From: Candidatus Magasanikbacteria bacterium RIFCSPHIGHO2_02_FULL_48_18
Lineage (GTDB): Bacteria; Patescibacteriota; Patescibacteriia; Magasanikbacterales; UBA922
Direction: 5' to 3'
DNA: 64,000 bases
NCBI GenBank assembly: GCA_001784285.1
Contig: MFQC01000003.1
Coordinates: forward strand, 221,517-285,516
A model generated the notes under the pieces. It worked only from the letters and a program-made list of their open reading frames with translations. It searched no databases and was not told the origin of the DNA. Shown piece after piece: positions 27,681 to 60,384 of this stretch. The position numbers and the translations under genes are program-made. Numbering within the stretch: position 1 is the stretch's first letter; every line of letters starts with the position of its first letter.

Positions 27681-28739
27681 TTATTTCGCAGTTTTTTTGG
27701 AAAACCAAATACCTACAAACAGCATGAGCATCCCTAAAAAAAGAAGCGCTACCATTTTTTGTCTGCTTTGCAAAAACAATGTCGTAATGCCAAACGAAAA
27801 AGAAATACCATACAAAATCAACACGGCCTGGCGATGCGACATGCCGGATTCAAGGAGTTTAAAATGCAAGTGTTCCCTATCGCCCACGTACAACGGACGG
27901 TTTGCCCGCAGACGACGCGCCATAACCCGAATCATATCAAGCATGGGAACACCCACCACAAGAAGGGTTGTTGCAATTTTTCCTCCGGAAATAATGGCAA
28001 GCGACCCCAAAAGAAAACCGGAAAACAAACTGCCACCTTGACCGAGAAATATCTTTGCCGGGTGCCAATTCCAAAACAAAAAACCAAGACACGATCCTGC
28101 AAACACAATCGCGAGGAGCGCCACGTCCGGCTGGTACCACTGTTTTTGCAGACTCAAGAAAAAAATCATAAGCGCGCCTATTGCCACGATCCCAGTTACC
28201 AAACCGTCGAGCCCATCAAGAAGTTTGGTCGTAAACATCATGCCCATAAGCCAAAAAAAGACCACGATGTCCGCAAGCACGACCCAGTTTCCCAATCCAT
28301 CAATAGGGATAACGAAACGATCCAAACGAATTTCCCCGCCAAACGGATTAGTAATCATGTGCGGACCAATACCAAAAGCGATAATAATGAGTGCGGCAAA
28401 GACAGCAAAAAAAAGTTGATATCGCGCTTTCAAATTTTTTCGATCATCAAGAATGCCGCCAATCATCAAAACCAATGAGCCAAAAAAAAGACCCCACAGG
28501 TGTCTTGGCAAAACAGTATGTTCCGCGGGGGTTTGCACAAAAGAAAATATAATCCAGACCAGGAAAAAAAATGATACAAAAATGGCAATCCCTCCGCCAA
28601 GAGGGATGGTTTTGGTATGAATTTTTCGATCAAGCGCTTTGGGCCGGTCCACAATATCGAGCCGCAACATAAGGCGGCGAATGCCCGCGGTAAGGCAAAA
28701 AGAAAGGGTAAGGGCAAAGAAGAAAAAAAAGAAATACAT
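27681..28739 (-). CDS. MraY/WecA-family polyprenol-phosphate N-acetylhexosamine-1-phosphate transferase
   Basis: Multi-TM protein with the conserved DD..D cytoplasmic loops. The ORF track extends to 29144, but that 5' extension lies in an antisense high-GC region, so MYFFFF at 28739 was chosen. Confidence 0.75.
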   Translation of the reverse strand: MYFFFFFFALTLSFCLTAGIRRLMLRLDIVDRPKALDRKIHTKTIPLGGGIAIFVSFFFLVWIIFSFVQTPAEHTVLPRHLWGLFFGSLVLMIGGILDDRKNLKARYQLFFAVFAALIIIAFGIGPHMITNPFGGEIRLDRFVIPIDGLGNWVVLADIVVFFWLMGMMFTTKLLDGLDGLVTGIVAIGALMIFFLSLQKQWYQPDVALLAIVFAGSCLGFLFWNWHPAKIFLGQGGSLFSGFLLGSLAIISGGKIATTLLVVGVPMLDMIRVMARRLRANRPLYVGDREHLHFKLLESGMSHRQAVLILYGISFSFGITTLFLQSRQKMVALLFLGMLMLFVGIWFSKKTAK

Positions 28740-28862
28740 ACAGGTCTTTGGCAAAAACAGCCATACGGTATTCCAAAGTATACCTGACGACAGGTGGCCT
28801 TGACAACTCTCTCTCTTTGCTATGATCGGCGGTTGTTCGTCCGCATTTTTTGAGGTAAAAAC

Positions 28863-29222
28863 ATGAACTTCATCGCGAACAACATCGATTGGATTTTCCC
28901 CCTTCTCTGCATGGCCCTTTTCTTCGGGGGTTTTTTCTGGAGCAAGACCCTGTGGCTGCGGCGGCCCGGCAAGCCCCGGGCCAAGCCGGGGACGACGTGG
29001 AGTGTGGTCGCAAACCTCTCCCCCTCCTACCTCCTGGTCGTCCGCCCTTACGGGGGCGACGATGCGAGCTGCCAGCTCTGGCAGCTCCCGAGGAGCTCTG
29101 TGAGCCTCCTCTCCTACCCGGTCGGCACGAAATTCGTCGCCCAAAAGGGCGGCCGCTTCGCAAAGCTCGAGACCGAAAAGGAAGAGCCTTCTTCAAATGA
29201 CCGCAAGGTCAGGAGTATCTGA
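28863..29222 (+). CDS. small high-GC (GC3-biased) gene, foreign composition; N-terminal TM/signal-anchor
   Basis: Third codon positions are almost all G/C, unlike the host. Starts MNFIANNIDWIFPLLCMALFFGGFFWSK. Confidence 0.45.
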   Translation: MNFIANNIDWIFPLLCMALFFGGFFWSKTLWLRRPGKPRAKPGTTWSVVANLSPSYLLVVRPYGGDDASCQLWQLPRSSVSLLSYPVGTKFVAQKGGRFAKLETEKEEPSSNDRKVRSI

Positions 29223-29360
29223 AGACGGCGCATGGGGCAAGGACGGCGGCACATAATCCAACAATCGCGGACGAACACAACACGCCGCCCGAACCCCTGC
29301 AAGGTGTCTGAAAATCGGATATCTTGCAGGAGGATACGGGCGGCGTTTGTTGTTTTATCA

Positions 29361-29452
29361 CCCCTCCCTGCCCCTCCCCGGATGGGGAGGGAACTATTCT
29401 CCCCTGGTTAAACCGTTCCTCCCCCGAGAGGGGGAGGACAGGAGGGGGAATT
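29361..29452. repeat. G-rich hairpin cluster: perfect palindromes ccctcccc-ggat-ggggaggg (29372-29391) and tcctccccc-gaga-gggggagga (29417-29438), plus direct repeat ggaggacaggag
   Basis: Read directly from the sequence. The second hairpin has a GNRA (GAGA) tetraloop. Confidence 0.7.
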
Positions 29453-29830
29453 CTTCAAGTCACCATCCAACCGCCTGCACACTTCTCGTATTTTTTCCTT
29501 TACCCGATCACGATCAAACAACACCTCATCATTCGTAAAACGAAGAATACTATATCCCTGACGACGCAGCCAGTCTTCCCGCGCATGGTCATATTCTTTT
29601 TGAAAATAATGAATCGGTCCATCAACCTCAATAACCAATCGAAGCCATTTGCAATAAAAATCCACAATAAAAAATCCAATACTGGTCTGCCGTTGGAAGC
29701 GATATCCTAATTTTCTTTTCCTTATTTCCTGCCACAGCACCAACTCGGCTTTCGTCATGTGGCGACGAAGCCGACGGCGTCGCTCTTTTACAATGCGCCA
29801 ATACAACCTGTGATCACAATAAAAATTCAT
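29408..29830 (-). CDS. DUF559 endonuclease-domain protein (Vsr-like PD-(D/E)xK fold)
   Basis: LWQEIRKRKLGYRFQRQTSIGFFIVDFYCKWLRLVIEVDGPIH...ILRFTNDEV matches DUF559. The C-terminal about 15 codons are read-through of the hairpin region. Confidence 0.8.
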   Translation of the reverse strand: MNFYCDHRLYWRIVKERRRRLRRHMTKAELVLWQEIRKRKLGYRFQRQTSIGFFIVDFYCKWLRLVIEVDGPIHYFQKEYDHAREDWLRRQGYSILRFTNDEVLFDRDRVKEKIREVCRRLDGDLKNSPSCPPPLGGGTV

Positions 29831-29892
29831 ACCCCTCCTTTTGTATCATTATTGTCATTTTTTCACCAATCCTCATCTCACTACGGATAGGA

Positions 29893-29935
29893 TGTCCCTC
29901 CCCCTAAGGGAGGAGGACAGGAGAGGGGTCACTTC
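29893..29935. repeat. second G-rich hairpin (cctccc-cctaa-gggagg) plus second copy of direct repeat ggaggacaggag, upstream of DUF559 gene
   Basis: 12-nt identical direct repeat with 29435-29446. Confidence 0.6.
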
Positions 29936-32694
29936 GCCCCTTCCACCTTTATCTTCCCGCCCTCCCCAATGACCACAGTATCGCGCCGTTTCAACTTGCC
30001 GCCCAATACCAACTCTGCCAAGTTATTTTCTACGGTGTCCTGAATGGCGCGGCGCATTGGGCGCGCACCAAATTCAGGATCAAATCCCACATCGGCCAAT
30101 GATTCGAGCGCCGCGGCGTCCACGCGCAAAAAAACGCCGCGTTTTTCCAAATCTTTTTCAACGCGTTTCAACATGAGTCCTGCCACCTGTTTTATTTCTT
30201 CTCTATCCAACGCTCGAAAAAGAACAATGCCGTCAAAACGGTTGAGAAATTCCGGACGATAATATTTTTTTAATTCACCGCGAATCAACGACTGACGAAT
30301 TTCTTCGAGCTCGACGCCCTTCCCGAGCTGATCGGCAACATATTGCGTTCCTGCGTTTGAAGTCGCAATAATAATCGTATTGGTAAAATCAATGAGTCGG
30401 CCCACGCTGTCGGTCAAGCGTCCGTCGTCAAAGACCTGTAAAAATAAATTGAGCACATCCGGATCCGCTTTTTCCATTTCATCAAATAACACCAAGGAAA
30501 AAGGATGCTGACGCACAGCCTCGGTAAGAATGCCGCTCCCCTGCTGTCCGGGCTGGCCGATAAGACGATAGATCCCGCTTTTATCTTGATATTCGCTCAT
30601 GTCTACGCGAATCATGCGATCTTCCCCGCCAAAATACACATCCGCGATAGTTTTTGCCAATTCGGTTTTTCCAACACCGGTTGGCCCTAAAAAAAGAAAA
30701 TTCGCGATTGGTTTTTTTTGCGACCGAATTTCCGCGCGAGCGCGGCGCAAAGCATTGGCAACCAGGAGCACGGCTTGATGCTGGCCAATCACGCGCTTGT
30801 GCATCTCTTCTTCCAGGCGCAACAATTTTGATGATTCATCTTCGGAAATGGTCGTCACCGGAATACCGGTTTTTTCATGAATAATGGTGGCGACATCATC
30901 GGCCGCGACCAGCTGTTGTTCTCCTTTATGATTCCGCGTATAGCTTGCCGCCTCGGTCATAATGGAAATTGCGCTTTCCGGAAGTCGCTGATCTTGAAGA
31001 AATCTACCGGCCAATTTGACGGACTGCTCCAAAGCGGCGTATGAAAAAAAGACATTGTGTTTGTATTCAATGGATCCCACTTTCGATTCCAACACCTGAA
31101 TAGCCTGGTTTTCATCCATTTCGTTGATATCCACGCGTGAAAACACAGTGCCTAATTCGGAATTGAGAATGTGCTTGTTGTATGCATCGAGCGTGGTTGT
31201 CGCCAATGTTAAAAATTTTCCCGGCCCCAAAAACTCAGAAAGCGTTTCGGACACGTCGAGGCCTTCCTGCCCATTCGTGTTTTCAATGGTCATGAGGTCG
31301 TGGATATTTTTGATAAAAAGAATGATATTGCCCGCTTTCCCGACCTCGCGCATCATCGACATCAATCGCTCTTGCGCCCCGCTCATGGTGGCGCCGGCCA
31401 AGAGAGCGGATGTTGAAAGCTGTACCAATCGCTTGTCACGCAGACGTTGGGGCGTGTCGTCCGCAATCATTTTTTGGGTAATGCCTTCAATGATGCTCAT
31501 CTTCCCCACCCCATGCTCTCCAACCAACAGCACGCTATGACGGCCGCCTTCAATGATGCGAAAAATTTCTTCTATCTCTTTATCACGCGCCACGCACGGC
31601 GGCATGTAGCCGTATTTCGCCGCCATCGTCAGGTCTTGGCTAAAATTGTTGAGATACGGTGTCGCAACCGCGGTCATGGCCCGATCGAGCCCATATTTGC
31701 TTCTATGCGCCGCCGCGCGTTGCAGGCGCCGAAACTGCGTATGCAGGCGCTCCCGAATGCGTAACCACGCAACCACATTGGTCAATTTATTTTTATCAAT
31801 ATCCAAATCATAGAGCAATTCCTGAATGGCGTCCGACTGCTGGACGGTTGCCAAAAGCAATTCCGTGATATGGACATATTCTTGTTTTGCGTGATACGCG
31901 GACTCATACGCGTGAAACATAATTTGCTGGACGTCGGCCGATAAGCCGGGCTCTCGTGATTCTAGAGCGGATGATTGAAACGCCTGTTTGAGACGCGCCT
32001 GAACATTGTCGGGATGAATGCCAAGACGGATAAAGACCATCCCTATTTTTTGCGCGGACAGAAGGGCCGAAAATACATGAAACGGCGTCACTTCTCCGTG
32101 GCCGGATTGGTACGCCAGTATATAGGCACGTTCCAATACGGCCCGTGTCTCCGGGGTAAAGGTATCCGCGATATCCAGTCGTTTTCTATGCGGCATACGG
32201 CGAACCTCTTGCCACGAACCAAGCGTCGCACTCGATTCCTCAGGTGTTTTTTCTTTTGCCCCTTCGTAGCCCGCATGTTCCACCAATGTTTGGGGCTTTT
32301 GATCTGCGATAAGACGATACACAAAAAAACTGAACGATACGACAGAAAACCAAAAGAGCATGCGGGCAGAATCGGCGCTTGTCATCCAATAATGAAGGGT
32401 AAAGACATTATTCAAAATTGGTCTTGAAGAAAGGACATACAGGTATAGCGCCAAAAAGCCAACACCAAAAACAACAGATCCAGTCAGCTCAAACATTTTT
32501 TTCCATCGTCGCACATGCCGGACCGTCACATGATACCGGGTAAGCGGTTCGCCCCAATAGAGCAACACCCCCCGCGCTATTCGCGCAACCGTCATGCCAT
32601 GGCACGACGAACAACGGCGAAATCCGCGATATCCGGCTCCGTGACATGCACCACAACGAAGAAGCGCAAGTGAAGCATTTTTGGTGAAGAGCAT
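29929..32694 (-). CDS. ClpC/ClpB-family AAA+ chaperone ATPase with N-terminal Cys4 zinc-ribbon + 2 TM extension
   Basis: Clp_N (TPFHVFSALL), NBD1 (GEHGVGKMS, degenerate Walker A), NBD2 (GPTGVGKTELAK), sensor regions. N-terminal CGACHG..CSSCHG then hydrophobic helices. Alternative internal start MPHRKR at 32196. Confidence 0.9.
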   Translation of the reverse strand: MLFTKNASLALLRCGACHGAGYRGFRRCSSCHGMTVARIARGVLLYWGEPLTRYHVTVRHVRRWKKMFELTGSVVFGVGFLALYLYVLSSRPILNNVFTLHYWMTSADSARMLFWFSVVSFSFFVYRLIADQKPQTLVEHAGYEGAKEKTPEESSATLGSWQEVRRMPHRKRLDIADTFTPETRAVLERAYILAYQSGHGEVTPFHVFSALLSAQKIGMVFIRLGIHPDNVQARLKQAFQSSALESREPGLSADVQQIMFHAYESAYHAKQEYVHITELLLATVQQSDAIQELLYDLDIDKNKLTNVVAWLRIRERLHTQFRRLQRAAAHRSKYGLDRAMTAVATPYLNNFSQDLTMAAKYGYMPPCVARDKEIEEIFRIIEGGRHSVLLVGEHGVGKMSIIEGITQKMIADDTPQRLRDKRLVQLSTSALLAGATMSGAQERLMSMMREVGKAGNIILFIKNIHDLMTIENTNGQEGLDVSETLSEFLGPGKFLTLATTTLDAYNKHILNSELGTVFSRVDINEMDENQAIQVLESKVGSIEYKHNVFFSYAALEQSVKLAGRFLQDQRLPESAISIMTEAASYTRNHKGEQQLVAADDVATIIHEKTGIPVTTISEDESSKLLRLEEEMHKRVIGQHQAVLLVANALRRARAEIRSQKKPIANFLFLGPTGVGKTELAKTIADVYFGGEDRMIRVDMSEYQDKSGIYRLIGQPGQQGSGILTEAVRQHPFSLVLFDEMEKADPDVLNLFLQVFDDGRLTDSVGRLIDFTNTIIIATSNAGTQYVADQLGKGVELEEIRQSLIRGELKKYYRPEFLNRFDGIVLFRALDREEIKQVAGLMLKRVEKDLEKRGVFLRVDAAALESLADVGFDPEFGARPMRRAIQDTVENNLAELVLGGKLKRRDTVVIGEGGKIKVEGAK

Positions 32695-34895: not shown

Positions 34896-35091
34896 AGAAG
34901 AAAAGCAATATACGTTGACAAGCATCGAACGTATTATTCCCCATTTATCCCCACTGAAACCCATAATACACCACTTTTCTTTCCTTTTCAATAATTTCTG
35001 TGGATAAACAGTGATAAAACAAAAAAACAACCATTCTCTGGTTATTGTGGGTAAGGGGAGGTCCTCCGGTCCTCCCCCGCGCAGATGTGTG

Positions 35092-40494: not shown

Positions 40495-41949
40495 TTAGGC
40501 CTGCGCGACGGCCGGGAACGTGGTGATGGAGGTAGAACGGCTGGCCTGCATCGGCTCAACCGCTACCCCCGCCAGCACCTTGCCCGTGACCTCTTCAATA
40601 CCCCCATAGTGGGGGTATCCGGCCTCACGGTAATCCCGGATCATGTCGACCAGGACTTGCAGGGCGGCCCGGAGCTGGTCACCCTGCTTGGAGTGGGTCA
40701 CCCGAAGGCCACGGATGACCTGGCCGTTCTCGATGTCCTGGAAGCCGGACAGTGGGATGCAGTAGGTGAACTTCGGAAGATCACCGTTCCGCTCCCCGTC
40801 CCGAGCCGCGGCGATCGACGCGAGCAGACGGTGGAGAAGGAGCTGGACCTCGTCGAGTTGGGGGTCCTCGAACACCACGACGTCGTAGTAGGCCCCCTGG
40901 CCGGAAATGAGCCGAAGCCCAGAGACGTACCCCAGAACTTCTCTCGCGATGCGTCGGTTGTCGGCCATCTCCTGGTTGAGCGCCCAGAAGTAGGCAGGCA
41001 ACCCCTCCGGCCCGAAGTCGTTCACGAGTACAGCGAGGGCATGCTGTACGTTCATGAAGTTGTTGACTCCGAGCCAGAGGTTGCTCCAGGGGACCAGAAG
41101 TTGCCGGATGCGCCGGTCGAGGGTCGTGAGTCGGCCGAGCCGCGCAGACGTGATGCAGGCCGTCTTGGACCAGGCCGCGGTCGAGATCGTCCGCGAAAGC
41201 CCGAGTTCGAGGATTGAGCGCGGCAGTCCATCGCTGACGCCGTAGTACTCTTCGTCCGCAAGGACGCACGTCTCACGGCGTTGCGGGTCGAGAAGAAAAT
41301 CTCTGACTGCTCCGAGCTCATCGTCGTCCCAGTTCTTAGCGGTCGGGTTTCCCGGCCGCTCGATGACGACGAGACGGCTCTCCTGCTTGACCCGCCGCAA
41401 CAGACTCGGCGTCACACGGAATCCCTCGCTAGGGTCCGTGGTGATGGCCTGCACCGAACGGCCGAGAAGCTTGCAGATGACCGGTGTGTTCGGCCAGGAA
41501 GGCCGAAACACGGTTACCAGATCTCCTGGCCGTGTGACGAGATTGATCGCCCCAAAGACAGCCCCGATCCCCCCGGGGGTGATCATGCTGTCCTCGGAGG
41601 TGATCCGGACTCCAGTCATCCCTGTCAGGTTCTGGGCGAGCGCGTCGAGAAGCACCTGCTCGCCGAAGGCCTGAGGGTAGGACTCGGGGTGACGCGGGTC
41701 GGCCACGATCGCGCGATAGATGCGATCCGGCGGCAAACGCGACAGACTGCCGACCGCGAGATGTGTGACCGGAACGCCGAGCTTTTCCGCGGTGCGGACG
41801 AGTGGGCGAAGCCGCCGAAGAATCGGCGTCTCGCCCATCATGACCAGGTTTGTCGGGTTCAAGTGGTACGCCCCCTGGCTCGGGCGTTCCACCGTGGTTC
41901 TTGCGCCATAGCCAAGGGCGGCCATAAGCGCTTCACCGGTTGGAGCCAT
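40495..41949 (-). CDS. class I/II PLP-dependent aminotransferase, high-GC foreign gene
   Basis: AWSKTACITSARLGRL (PLP-lysine motif SxSKxxxxxGxRxG) and ERPGNPT. GC3-biased codons, roughly 62% GC versus about 45% background (visual estimate). Start MAPTGEAL at 41949. Confidence 0.8.
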   Translation of the reverse strand: MAPTGEALMAALGYGARTTVERPSQGAYHLNPTNLVMMGETPILRRLRPLVRTAEKLGVPVTHLAVGSLSRLPPDRIYRAIVADPRHPESYPQAFGEQVLLDALAQNLTGMTGVRITSEDSMITPGGIGAVFGAINLVTRPGDLVTVFRPSWPNTPVICKLLGRSVQAITTDPSEGFRVTPSLLRRVKQESRLVVIERPGNPTAKNWDDDELGAVRDFLLDPQRRETCVLADEEYYGVSDGLPRSILELGLSRTISTAAWSKTACITSARLGRLTTLDRRIRQLLVPWSNLWLGVNNFMNVQHALAVLVNDFGPEGLPAYFWALNQEMADNRRIAREVLGYVSGLRLISGQGAYYDVVVFEDPQLDEVQLLLHRLLASIAAARDGERNGDLPKFTYCIPLSGFQDIENGQVIRGLRVTHSKQGDQLRAALQVLVDMIRDYREAGYPHYGGIEEVTGKVLAGVAVEPMQASRSTSITTFPAVAQA

Positions 41950-42182
41950 AACTGCTCTCCTCTGGTTTTTGGTTTTGGCAGTCCCCTTGTGAAACTGCCG
42001 TGAATGGCGTTTTGCCTCAAAACCCAAATTCGGACAGACAGGATGTCCAAAACAGGGTCGCAAAAACGAGGGCGCCACCCTCGTTGAAGCCCGCGGTCCT
42101 CCATCTCCGCGGTTGAGAAAAAGTAAACTTGATTTTTGATGAACAAAGGACTTTACCCCGACAAAAGTCGGGACAAAGATCC

Positions 42183-58939: not shown

Positions 58940-59211
58940 ACGGGAAAAAAGGTGATTTGTCTATTTGACGTCAAACGTCGGACGCCTACTGGCAAGGCAG
59001 GCCAAACAATCAGTACTATTGTATTGATTGACAAACGCTCAATGTTATGATACAAAACCAAATCCAAAAAAAGACCGTTTTGGTCCATTTTGGGTGTGTT
59101 CTTTAAAAAAAGACATGGCGTGCCATGAGAAGACTTTTCTCTTTTCATGGGACGCTGTGTCAAAACTGACATGGCAATGTGAAGGCTTCGAAAGAAAAGA
59201 GGAGAAACGCC
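58940..59211 (+). promoter_or_regulatory. regulatory region of the M20 cassette: TTGATT-16-TATGAT promoter, palindromes TTGACGTCAA and CATGGC-gt-GCCATG, SD aaGAGGAGa
   Basis: Read directly from the sequence. SD is 8 nt before the ATG at 59212. Confidence 0.4.
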
Positions 59212-60384
59212 ATGGCTACGAAGAACATCGCCGCCGCCGTCCGCCACGTCCTTCCCGCCACCCGCGGATTCGCATTCCACCTCCACCGCGAGCCGGAGCT
59301 CTCCTGGGGCGAGGTGAGGACCATGGACAAGGTGACCGAGGCGATCGTGAACCACTTCACGGAGGCCAGGATCGTCCGGTGGAAGTCCGGATTCTGGACT
59401 GACGTGGTTGTCAACCCGGACGATCCGACGCTCACCATGTTTCGGGCCGACATGGACGCCCTCCCTGTCCAAGAGGCCACCGGCCTGCCCTACTCGAGTC
59501 GTATCCAGGGCGTCATGCACGCCTGCGGACACGACTTCCACACGGCCGGGCTCCTCGGCGCCTACCGCGCGATTGCCCGCGGCCTGGTCAGGCCAACCCG
59601 AAACATCCGGTTCGTGTTCCAGGCGGCCGAGGAATCCCCGGAGTCCGGGGCCAAGGCCATGATCGAGGAATGCGTTCTCGAGAACGTCGTCTCGGCCCAC
59701 GGCGCCCATGTCTGGCCGTACGCGCCGGTCGGTACCGCGCTGTGCCGGCCGGGGCCAATGATGGCCAACCCGGGTGTGCTCCGGCTCAAAATCCGGTCGG
59801 CCGGCGGCCACGTGGCCGATCCGGAGCACGGTTCGGGTGCTCTCCGCGGGGCGGTGTGCGCGATCTGGGGGCTCCTGTCGTCCCAGTTCAACGTGGTCCC
59901 CGAGGGCCAGCCGTTCGTGCTGGAGCCGGTCCAGTGCCAGGCTGGAGACGGTGTCGTCACCAATGTCCTCCCCTCGGAGGCAACGTTGGTGTTCAACATC
60001 CGGCATTTCCTGGTAGGGGACCAGCGCGACCTGCTCCAGGCCGCGATCGAGGGGGTGATCCGCACCTCGGTCGCGAAGGTCCCGGGCGCCGAGGTCGCCG
60101 ATCTCTCCTTCCAGTGGGGCGCGCCGGCACTTCACAACACGCCCGAGGACGTGGAGCGGGTCGGGGCGCTCCTCGGCGCCCAGGGGCTGACCGTCAAGGA
60201 GATGGCCCCGATCCTCGGGGCCGAGGACTTCTCCTACTTCCTCGGCGAGCGGCCCGGCTCATTCTGGTTCTTCGGTGCCCACACCGAGGGCACGGGGCCG
60301 ATCCACAGCCCCACCTTCGTGTGCAACCCGAAGGTCCTCCAGGGCCTCATCGCCTACTGGCTCGCGCTCGCGACCGCTCCGTAG
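59212..60384 (+). CDS. M20D-family amidohydrolase (hippurate hydrolase / N-acyl-amino acid amidohydrolase-like), high-GC foreign gene
   Basis: HACGHD, GAEDFS motifs. Roughly 65% GC with strong GC3 bias. ORF track starts at 59179, but the SD supports 59212. Confidence 0.85.
   Translation: MATKNIAAAVRHVLPATRGFAFHLHREPELSWGEVRTMDKVTEAIVNHFTEARIVRWKSGFWTDVVVNPDDPTLTMFRADMDALPVQEATGLPYSSRIQGVMHACGHDFHTAGLLGAYRAIARGLVRPTRNIRFVFQAAEESPESGAKAMIEECVLENVVSAHGAHVWPYAPVGTALCRPGPMMANPGVLRLKIRSAGGHVADPEHGSGALRGAVCAIWGLLSSQFNVVPEGQPFVLEPVQCQAGDGVVTNVLPSEATLVFNIRHFLVGDQRDLLQAAIEGVIRTSVAKVPGAEVADLSFQWGAPALHNTPEDVERVGALLGAQGLTVKEMAPILGAEDFSYFLGERPGSFWFFGAHTEGTGPIHSPTFVCNPKVLQGLIAYWLALATAP

Follow-up and report, generated by a model that had tools for sequence, protein, structure and literature searches.

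The DNA analysed here, a window of 64 kb with an overall GC content of about 0.47, comes from a Candidatus Magasanikbacteria (Patescibacteria) genome from groundwater (Rifle). Between the gene for a ClpC-type AAA+ ATPase and the gene for a MraY/WecA-like glycosyltransferase family 4 (GT4) protein, it carries a predicted DUF559 endonuclease gene of the Vsr-like PD-(D/E)XK type, three short repeat units (H1, H2 and H3) and a GC-rich stretch that holds an orphan open reading frame (ORFan) of 119 aa. Read along the minus strand from high to low coordinates, the order is ClpC, H3, DUF559, H2, H1, a stem-loop with a T-run, the convergent plus-strand ORFan, a spacer and GT4 (Table 1). A first, sequence-only reading of this DNA had proposed a small mobile or homing unit, or else a family of REP-like elements. 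We describe the anatomy of the locus, the class to which its units belong, the insertion relative to related genomes, the position-specific association of such units with DUF559 genes across phyla and the varied contexts of the close homologues, and then consider how such a module may spread.

Table 1. Features of the ClpC–GT4 interval, in window coordinates
Feature	Position	Strand	Details
Whole segment, insertion relative to related genomes	28740..29928	.	1,189 bp; comparison with 9 related loci
ClpC-type AAA+ ATPase gene, upstream flank of the insertion	29929..32694	-	Pfam AAA_2, ClpB_D2-small and others; stop codon 29929-29931
Unit H3, decayed	29894..29928	+	same orientation as H2; abuts the ClpC stop codon; 6-bp stem, 5-nt loop
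AAGGAGGGG	29832..29840	-	directly ahead of the DUF559 ATG; Shine-Dalgarno sequence
DUF559 (Vsr-like PD-(D/E)XK) endonuclease gene, predicted	29408..29830	-	140 aa; Pfam PF04480, residues 15-118
Unit H2	29415..29449	+	TCCTCCCCC-GAGA-GGGGGAGGA-C-AGGAGGGGG; 9-bp perfect stem, 4-nt loop; overlaps the end of the DUF559 reading frame
Unit H1	29360..29393	-	CCCTCCCC-ATCC-GGGGAGGG-GCA-GGGAGGGG (minus strand); 8-bp perfect stem, 4-nt loop
Long two-tier stem-loop, then TTTGTTGTTTT (T-run)	29268..29362	+	inverted repeats I1 and I6
GC3-biased 119-aa ORFan, hydrophobic N-terminus	28863..29222	+	GC1/2/3 = 0.53/0.48/0.82
Sigma-70-like promoter TTGTCA-18-TATACT, predicted	28777..28806	-	consensus scan, 10/12 matches; 38 nt upstream of the GT4 start
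GT4 (MraY/WecA-like) gene	27681..28739	-	Pfam PF00953, E = 1.5e-28; start = ATG at 28739

Repeat units of the window

Three polypurine/polypyrimidine hairpins had been noticed around the nuclease gene, and all three are present: CCCTCCCC-GGAT-GGGGAGGG at 29372-29391, TCCTCCCCC-GAGA-GGGGGAGGA at 29418-29439 with its perfect 9-bp stem, and CCTCCC-CCTAA-GGGAGG at 29897-29913. The pattern CCTCCC-N3-9-GGGAGG occurs three times in the 64 kb, always at the island (shuffle mean 0.03). They are not, however, the plain hairpins with a GNRA loop that they had been taken for, but three-block, triplex-capable units made up of arm, loop, arm, turn and mirror arm. The mirror tail of H1 matches at 8/8 positions after a turn of 3 nt, which gives 8/8 triplets, and its hairpin folds at -9.8 kcal/mol (ViennaRNA folding covers Watson-Crick pairs only; the triplet counts come from the sequence). 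The final block of H2 is an exact mirror of the purine arm (9/9, 1-nt turn), with 7 G·G:C and 2 A·A:T triplets possible. The mirror tail of the decayed H3 scores 5/6 by script and 9/11 in a longer register judged by eye, and its fold is no better than that of shuffled sequences (z = -0.26). Strict units thus number exactly two in the window, H1 and H2, both at the 3' end of DUF559, in addition to decayed H3; 19/20 block-shuffled windows gave no strict unit and 1/20 gave one. The outward tails also allow the H1/H2 pair to fold back on itself (-26.3 kcal/mol, z = -2.5).

A 12-mer, GGAGGACAGGAG, had been described as a direct repeat bracketing the gene. It is indeed present twice (0.06 expected by chance with at most one mismatch), at 29433-29444 and 29912-29923 rather than at 29435 and 29915, as the core of a 34-nt direct repeat (29415-29448 and 29894-29927, 82% identical). 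It consists of the purine arm, turn and mirror block of the co-oriented H2 and H3. Its proposed role as a boundary of the unit has to be given up: it is neither a target-site duplication nor a terminal repeat, and the canonical layout in relatives is inverted, '> gene <'.

The further copy that had been placed at 35046-35070 is a partial one, namely a purine-first hairpin at 35056-35076 that lacks the pyrimidine arm. It lies upstream of mraZ, and GGGGGAGGAC[C]GGAGG on its minus strand is also found in H2, where it spans the purine arm, turn and tail. This hairpin is probably what is left of a unit in the promoter region of the cell-division cluster.

Triplex-motif class and unit architecture

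The architecture of the units was surveyed in 224 pyrimidine-first hairpins drawn from the window and from 80 loci with relatives of the window protein (38-55% identity). These loci were chosen by tblastn and come from Patescibacteria, Chloroflexota, Cyanobacteria, Bacteroidota, Proteobacteria, Nitrospirota and others. The flank of these hairpins mirrors the purine arm, with a mean match of 0.904 versus 0.769 +/- 0.006 when flanks are permuted, and the match reaches at least 87.5% in 76% of hairpins versus 30% with permuted flanks. A mirror copy fits better than a direct copy by 134 to 6, and the turn is 3 nt long in 126/176 cases. G is answered by G at 98% of positions; for an A of the arm the mirror block has A or T, C in no case and G at just 3/324 positions.

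On these sequence features the hairpins belong to a known class, the intrastrand purine-motif triplex motif (TM/PIT). The pattern published for TM_ECO/PIT is 5'-CCCTCNCCC-N3-6-GGGNGAGGG-N3-GGGNGAGGG (Holder et al., 2015 NAR, PMC4666352). A triplex has been shown in vitro for TM_ECO alone; TM/PIT are abundant in Enterobacteria and Cyanobacteria, frequently as inverted pairs (PMC4666352, where earlier TM work by Hoyne and Maher is cited). Like these motifs, units of the window type are intergenic, lie on either strand and often form inverted pairs, and both H1 and H2 have the C-rich stem, the first loop of 3-6 nt, the G-rich stem and the mirrored second G-rich block. They differ in the second loop, published as 3 nt and in the window subfamily 1 nt (C/T/G), as in H2; in their CCTCCCCC-type stems; and in the overlap of H2 with a coding end. 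A further difference is that the units described here systematically bracket DUF559, whereas the published survey found no mobility gene near TM in any case and no pattern in the flanking genes (PMC4666352). The idea of a REP-like family therefore stands in part: the units do form a known class of dispersed repeat, the triplex motifs, but an identity with REP, which would call for an HUH gene, does not hold, as no HUH family matches the DUF559 protein in Pfam or NCBIfam.

Association of the units with DUF559 genes

Under a strict criterion (a perfect 6-bp stem), pyrimidine-first hairpins occur at 2.35/kb within 200 nt of DUF559 genes versus 0.21/kb elsewhere in the same loci, an 11-fold difference. 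Across 335 kb of ClpC control loci the density is 0.05/kb, about 50-fold below that of the DUF559 flanks, and purine-first hairpins, used as a control, number 4 near and 5 far. A hairpin is found upstream of DUF559 in 51/73 loci, downstream in 50/77 and on both sides in 37/70. The repeats are thus linked to the nuclease rather than being generic terminators. As the tblastn query included a tail encoded by the repeat, selection bias could have raised the number of downstream units; the association persists in the subset of loci whose match leaves out this tail (27/37 upstream, 21/36 downstream).

The units also hold fixed positions relative to the gene. The upstream hairpin ends a median of 101.5 nt (interquartile range (IQR) 85-125) before codon T26, which places the unit about 25 nt ahead of the start codon, and the downstream hairpin starts a median of 77 nt (IQR 64-89.5) past codon V103, so that the unit begins near codon 129. 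Inverted flanks make up 23 of the 27 classifiable loci, 15 of them '> gene <' (tails in) and 8 '< gene >' (tails out); the remaining 4 are direct. The two units that flank one DUF559 gene resemble each other, and canonical modules measure 405-511 bp. Second DUF559 copies in two loci (L042 and L053) are likewise flanked by hairpins, and two copies can sit within 6 kb. Other genes in the same loci are not flanked in this way. Dispersed units are seen in E. coli and in some of the loci; none lies in the window outside the island. Alternating arrays of units (A/B, period about 133 nt) occur on both sides of DUF559 in L025 (404-616 and 2690-3593), L021, L051 and L088, mainly from Chloroflexota genomes, which suggests tandem amplification of unit pairs. 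No literature linking DUF559 to these repeats was found in a search that was incomplete, so that an earlier description is possible; the systematic pairing of DUF559 with the units across phyla appears undescribed.

The DUF559 protein

The window protein matches PF04480 with 119 bits (cut-off 20.6; E = 1.1e-34), and its residues 119-140 are encoded by H2. It is a single-domain protein, present in a single copy in the window, and its gene is intergenic. It carries all 22 invariant columns of an alignment of 22 sequences (A1), and the core residues D57, E68-x-D70, H74, R84, R97 and N100 (window numbering) are present. The profile of this alignment matches PDB 3HRL (E = 4.8e-32 over 99 positions) and the homing endonuclease I-Bth0305I (PDB 3R3P; E = 2.5e-5 over 71 positions). 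The match to NCBIfam PRK09767, at 72.6 bits, lies under the curated cut-off of 218 bits for the YcjD equivalog. The gene had been judged host-like in composition, and this is correct (GC 0.42-0.45, GC3, the GC content at third codon positions, 0.40-0.43). Membership of a defence system was considered and set aside, with no meaningful match in PADLOC. Carriage of the module by phage was also rejected: DUF559 relatives on viral contigs are rare, at 14 among 2.9 million, and most have no units.

Many annotated DUF559 proteins end in tails rich in P/S/L...G/E/R, such as PPPLGGG and SPRAPLPRGEG, as seen in the C-terminal columns of A1. These odd tails arise because the 3' repeat unit is translated, the downstream unit beginning near codon 129, and they are probably not functional protein sequence.

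Closest homologues and the rearranged copy of the window

The homologues most similar to the window protein (55-66% identical) lie in varied contexts: after PolA in two Magasanikbacteria, after a SIMPL-domain gene beside a recombinase, and after a methyltransferase-NUDIX gene. Each is 20-70 nt downstream of the preceding gene and on the same strand. The units there match H2 almost exactly, with the form GTTCCTCCCCC...GGGGGAGGA-[C/T]-AGGAGGGGG. At one locus (L150) the intact upstream unit ends ...GGGGGAGGA-T-AGGAGGGGG-TT-ATG; its tail supplies AGGAGG just ahead of the ATG and would therefore act as the ribosome-binding site. At another (L149) the inverted repeat continues for 8 nt past the unit. 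Most DUF559 copies have no promoter of their own and lie 20-100 nt behind a co-directional host gene, with the upstream purine tail as ribosome-binding site.

The copy in the window departs from this template by rearrangement. Its H2 is a normal unit, the canonical 3' unit of the module; the 5' unit has shrunk to AAGGAGGGG, apparently what remains of the tail of an upstream unit that has decayed; and H3 and H1 are extra, one on each side.

The position of the tails raises the question of whether the units are simply expression signals: the upstream unit would hide GGAGG and so throttle translation, the downstream unit would end or stabilise the transcript, and DUF559 would be an ordinary repair nuclease with no mobility. 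This would fit L150 and L015, where the spacing of purine tail and start codon suits ribosome binding, and free-standing endonuclease genes of the Vsr-like and GIY-YIG types are documented to have regulatory hairpins ahead of them (PMC2677866). It is nonetheless a distinctly unlikely account. Units without the gene exist, among them the 22 other TM_ECO of E. coli and the gene-less pairs after ClpC; no T-run follows the units, and the mirror tail is unnecessary for termination. Related genomes have a separate, canonical terminator ahead of the units. Inverted units place the G-rich three-block strand on opposite strands, and the RNA would therefore differ at each end. An earlier study is also cited as having found neither promoter nor terminator activity in the units (cited in PMC4666352).

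The insertion site in related genomes

The synteny p120-ClpC-GT4-DUF192 is kept in related Magasanikbacteria. At 9 related loci, which represent 7 distinct sequences and have ClpC identities of 60-77%, the distance from the ClpC stop to the GT4 start is -4 to 136 nt, and neither DUF559 nor the ORFan is found between the two genes. The two closest relatives, with ClpC identities of 69% and 67%, are both empty at the site; a still closer relative by which the insertion might be dated was sought, the best ClpC relative being the one at 69%.

Units without the gene do occur at this same site. L089/L090 have a gene-less inverted pair of units, 90 nt long, between ClpC and GT4, and L093 (4478-4688) and L108 (6824-7012) have an element of about 200 nt whose inverted ends are tipped by CTCCCCC/GGGGGAG hairpins. 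Recent movement of this element was considered but does not hold up: L093 and L108 are collinear, with about 80% identity, and conservation is no higher in the element than around it (0.84 vs 0.81). Because of this collinearity, L093 and L108 count as one event, not two. A convergent 206-aa ORFan with a hydrophobic N-terminus adjoins the hairpin-tipped element (7113-7733 in L108), in a layout that parallels the window without DUF559. Taken together, the empty site in relatives, the gene-less unit pairs at the same site and the close homologues in other contexts would amount to evidence of the type expected from mobility.

Eight contigs of the same population are 99.98-100% identical when N runs are set aside, and all are occupied at the site; a search for insertion polymorphism within this population therefore gave none among these near-identical contigs. 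Independent assemblies of the same population break here: three contigs stop within the ORFan (29091/29107), and another begins at 29861, in the stretch that separates the DUF559 start from H3. A loss of coverage in GC-rich DNA or strain heterogeneity at the island could account for such breaks. They are also what speaks for an assembly artefact, in which the GC-rich piece would be a chimeric join made through shared repeats in the metagenome. This is hardly credible, since no fewer than five further contigs, obtained from different samples and with different assemblers, cross the region at 99.98-100% identity, and host synteny picks up again on either side of the island.

The ycjD locus of E. 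coli

E. coli K-12 has one DUF559 gene, ycjD, the 3' end of which runs into a degenerate unit. Downstream of ycjD (NC_000913.3, 1351039-1351407; L148) there is a partial duplicate of its 3' end and then a canonical TM_ECO. The latter is motif no. 9 of the published table, where it is listed without comment (PMC4666352). YcjD and PDB 3HRL belong to the same Pfam family as the window protein, and ycjD resembles the window gene in ending in a unit with a further motif behind it; the window protein differs in not being an equivalog, in its low identity and in the sequences of its units.

The gene ycjD is present in 3,377/5,426 complete E. coli genomes. In about 38% of the complete genomes, an RND efflux island occupies the sapF|fabI interval in place of ycjD and its TM. 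In an evenly spaced sample, the number of further TM-like places has a median of 18 (range 13-27, n=37) in genomes with ycjD versus 7.5 (range 1-15, n=22) in those without, a contrast that is no more than suggestive, given the phylogenetic confounding of the sample.

These observations bear on an alternative modelled on RAYT and REPIN, in which DUF559 would be largely domesticated and low-copy, and would maintain or spread the triplex repeats in trans rather than its own gene. E. coli has a single ycjD for 23 TM_ECO, of which five pairs are inverted doublets, and more TM-like places are found where ycjD is present. Inverted units flank the gene as REPs flank RAYT genes, and gene-less doublets exist. 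In both systems, a short structured repeat of lineage-specific sequence occurs as singlets and inverted doublets, with a small nuclease-type gene between inverted copies. The enzymes are nevertheless different: RAYT is a homologue of HUH Y1 transposases that acts on single-stranded hairpins through a covalent intermediate, whereas DUF559 is a hydrolytic PD-(D/E)XK nuclease without the covalent strand-transfer chemistry of HUH enzymes. The repeats differ too, REP being a GTAG/CGTC-tagged palindrome and the repeat here a three-block unit capable of forming a triplex, and DUF559 is multi-copy in some genomes. That close homologues lie in different gene contexts, and that two copies can occur within such a short distance of each other, indicates that the gene itself moves, and the window has no dispersed units. 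We regard the RAYT-like alternative as unlikely.

A different account of the same loci would be coincidence through instability, with triplex motifs as fragile sites and both DUF559 and the GC-rich ORFan as mere frequent passengers. In its favour, E. coli strains show more rearrangement at TM loci (PMC4666352), either ycjD with its TM or the efflux island occupies the sapF|fabI interval, and the module has GC-rich foreign reading frames as neighbours in the window, L154 and L011. Random passengers would not, however, be expected to show fixed unit distances to both gene ends, a reading frame that enters the 3' unit and, across phyla, a match between the units of the two sides. Other genes in the same loci are unflanked, and the two other GC-rich foreign genes of the window have no units nearby. 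Coincidence is accordingly a highly unlikely explanation.

A proposed compact selfish module

We consider the chances evenly balanced that the window carries a partly decayed, compact selfish module, in which a DUF559 nuclease gene is framed by triplex-motif repeats, the nuclease acts on the units and the module spreads in a homing-like manner. The mobile or homing-type unit first proposed for this DNA is hence still the best reading, with the mobility and the action of the nuclease on the repeats as its inferred part. DUF559 would recognise the units and nick or cut them, probably once single-stranded or supercoiled DNA has extruded them as a hairpin or triplex. If the break were then repaired from a copy that bears the gene, the gene would end up between two units, as in homing, and gene-less unit pairs would be targets or relics of the module. 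At about even odds overall, homing of the gene into unit pairs is preferred over a RAYT/REPIN-like spread of the units.

Known systems offer partial parallels. The Vsr-like (EDxHD) homing endonucleases such as I-Bth0305I share the catalytic superfamily (PDB 3R3P; PMC3239194, PMC2677866), and their genes, too, are small and free-standing, follow host genes in the same direction, have hairpins ahead of the start and occupy sites that are empty in relatives. They differ in residing in group I introns or split phage genes, in having an extra N-terminal DNA-binding region and in targeting a unique host gene; DUF559 proteins here are 120-140 aa, and their genes are intergenic and chromosomal, seldom occur on viral contigs and go with a repeat instead of a single gene. 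Miniature inverted-repeat transposable elements (MITEs) and their autonomous insertion sequences provide a second parallel, since copies with the gene, 405-511 bp long and bounded by inverted ends, are found alongside pairs of these ends without it. Here, by contrast, there is no transposase of a known class and no target-site duplication, and the ends are structured repeats that are also found singly.

Several points weigh against a homing module. The nuclease activity of DUF559 and the movement of the module are both predictions. A PD-(D/E)XK hydrolase is incapable of strand transfer alone, and any spread must therefore use host recombination and repair. H3 and H2 are in direct orientation in the window copy, and the other 63 kb of the window hold no dispersed units. 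About 30% of DUF559 loci have no unit on a given side by the strict criterion, none of 16 canonical modules shows a target-site duplication, and such hairpins are missing from 9/14 of the DUF559 relatives on viral contigs. With the nearest relative at only 69% ClpC identity, a recent presence/absence polymorphism is lacking. In E. coli, the contrast in TM counts carries its phylogenetic confounding, and O157 strains without ycjD still keep about 12 TM-like places. Finally, dimethyl sulphate (DMS) footprinting revealed no stable triplex in vivo (Holder et al., PMC4666352).

A broader proposal is more tentative. It is possible, though short of probable, that DUF559 proteins are the dedicated enzymes of bacterial intrastrand-triplex repeats, forming a selfish nuclease-plus-repeat class that spans phyla and uses the three-stranded fold as its recognition signal. 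The orphan TM/PIT, which number hundreds of thousands, would then be gene-less derivatives.

The GC-rich stretch and neighbouring genes

The GC-rich stretch next to the module is real, 50-nt windows from 28900 to 29450 having a GC content of 0.52-0.80 versus about 0.47 for the window. Its ORFan has GAGG as a ribosome-binding site 8 nt ahead of the ATG. For comparison with its third-position bias, host GC3 is 0.49 +/- 0.03 (seventeen large host reading frames in the window). The ORFan matched itself alone, both among 5.8 billion clustered proteins in a word-indexed search and among 1.84 billion representative proteins in an exhaustive HMMER search; it had no match in Pfam, NCBIfam or PADLOC and no similarity to the neighbouring ORFans of L108 and L154. 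Antisense and alternative frames of the stretch were examined as candidates and dropped, as they have no Pfam matches and the sole antisense frame with high GC3 is interrupted by stops. The view that this gene is foreign agrees with its GC3 of 0.82, with the lack of any homologue and with its absence from the same site in relatives, and the ORFan is probably a foreign gene. The stem-loop behind it, folded as DNA, has a free energy of -30.1 kcal/mol (z = -6.97; 0/200 shuffles equal) and is a probable intrinsic terminator of the ORFan. The ORFan and the DUF559 module are compositionally distinct and were probably separate acquisitions.

Two further genes of the window are GC-rich, a class I/II aminotransferase gene (40495-42078, minus strand; GC3 0.76) and an M20 peptidase gene (59179-60384, plus strand; GC3 0.89), neither with triplex-motif units nearby. 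Both are likely recent imports from high-GC donors, and since they show the foreign signature of the ORFan, the genome would seem to acquire high-GC genes repeatedly. A GC-rich island also directly adjoins the DUF559 module in L154 (3451-4300; GC 0.70 vs 0.36) and L011 (2251-2750), in low-GC genomes, as in the window. These two islands encode a small signal-peptide or lipoprotein reading frame, and the reading frames of the window, L154 and L011 are mutually dissimilar. As a regular companion of the module the GC-rich island was rejected, being found in 2/60 loci alone (L154 and L011).

On the other side of the ORFan, an AT-rich spacer of 123 nt leads to GT4, the product of which is annotated by NCBI as 352 aa. 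The N-terminal extension of the GT4 reading frame, up to 29144, had been suspected of being an artefact and is one, because the alignment with orthologues begins at residue 1, the Met at 28739. As the insertion severs GT4 from ClpC, GT4 requires a promoter of its own in the window, and the promoter-like site of Table 1 would drive it. At Rfam gathering thresholds the whole window yields three tRNAs and nothing else, and in E-value mode the island gives sub-threshold generic hairpin matches alone, e.g. whalefall-1 with 18 bits versus a threshold of 37; a known RNA family was thus discarded as an explanation of the island.

Significance

The association described here joins two long-standing puzzles, namely DUF559/YcjD, a very large family with a solved structure and an unexplained role, and the triplex repeats, which have been in bacterial catalogues since 2000 and are likewise unexplained. 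If the nuclease acts on the repeats, this would explain both the origin of the repeats and the instability of their loci, and DUF559 would be the first natural enzyme to target a DNA triplex. For annotation, the modules can serve as markers of insertion hot spots, and the tails of DUF559 proteins can be recognised as translated repeats. The feature in the window is itself one somewhat decayed member, and its value lies in pointing to a widespread architecture.

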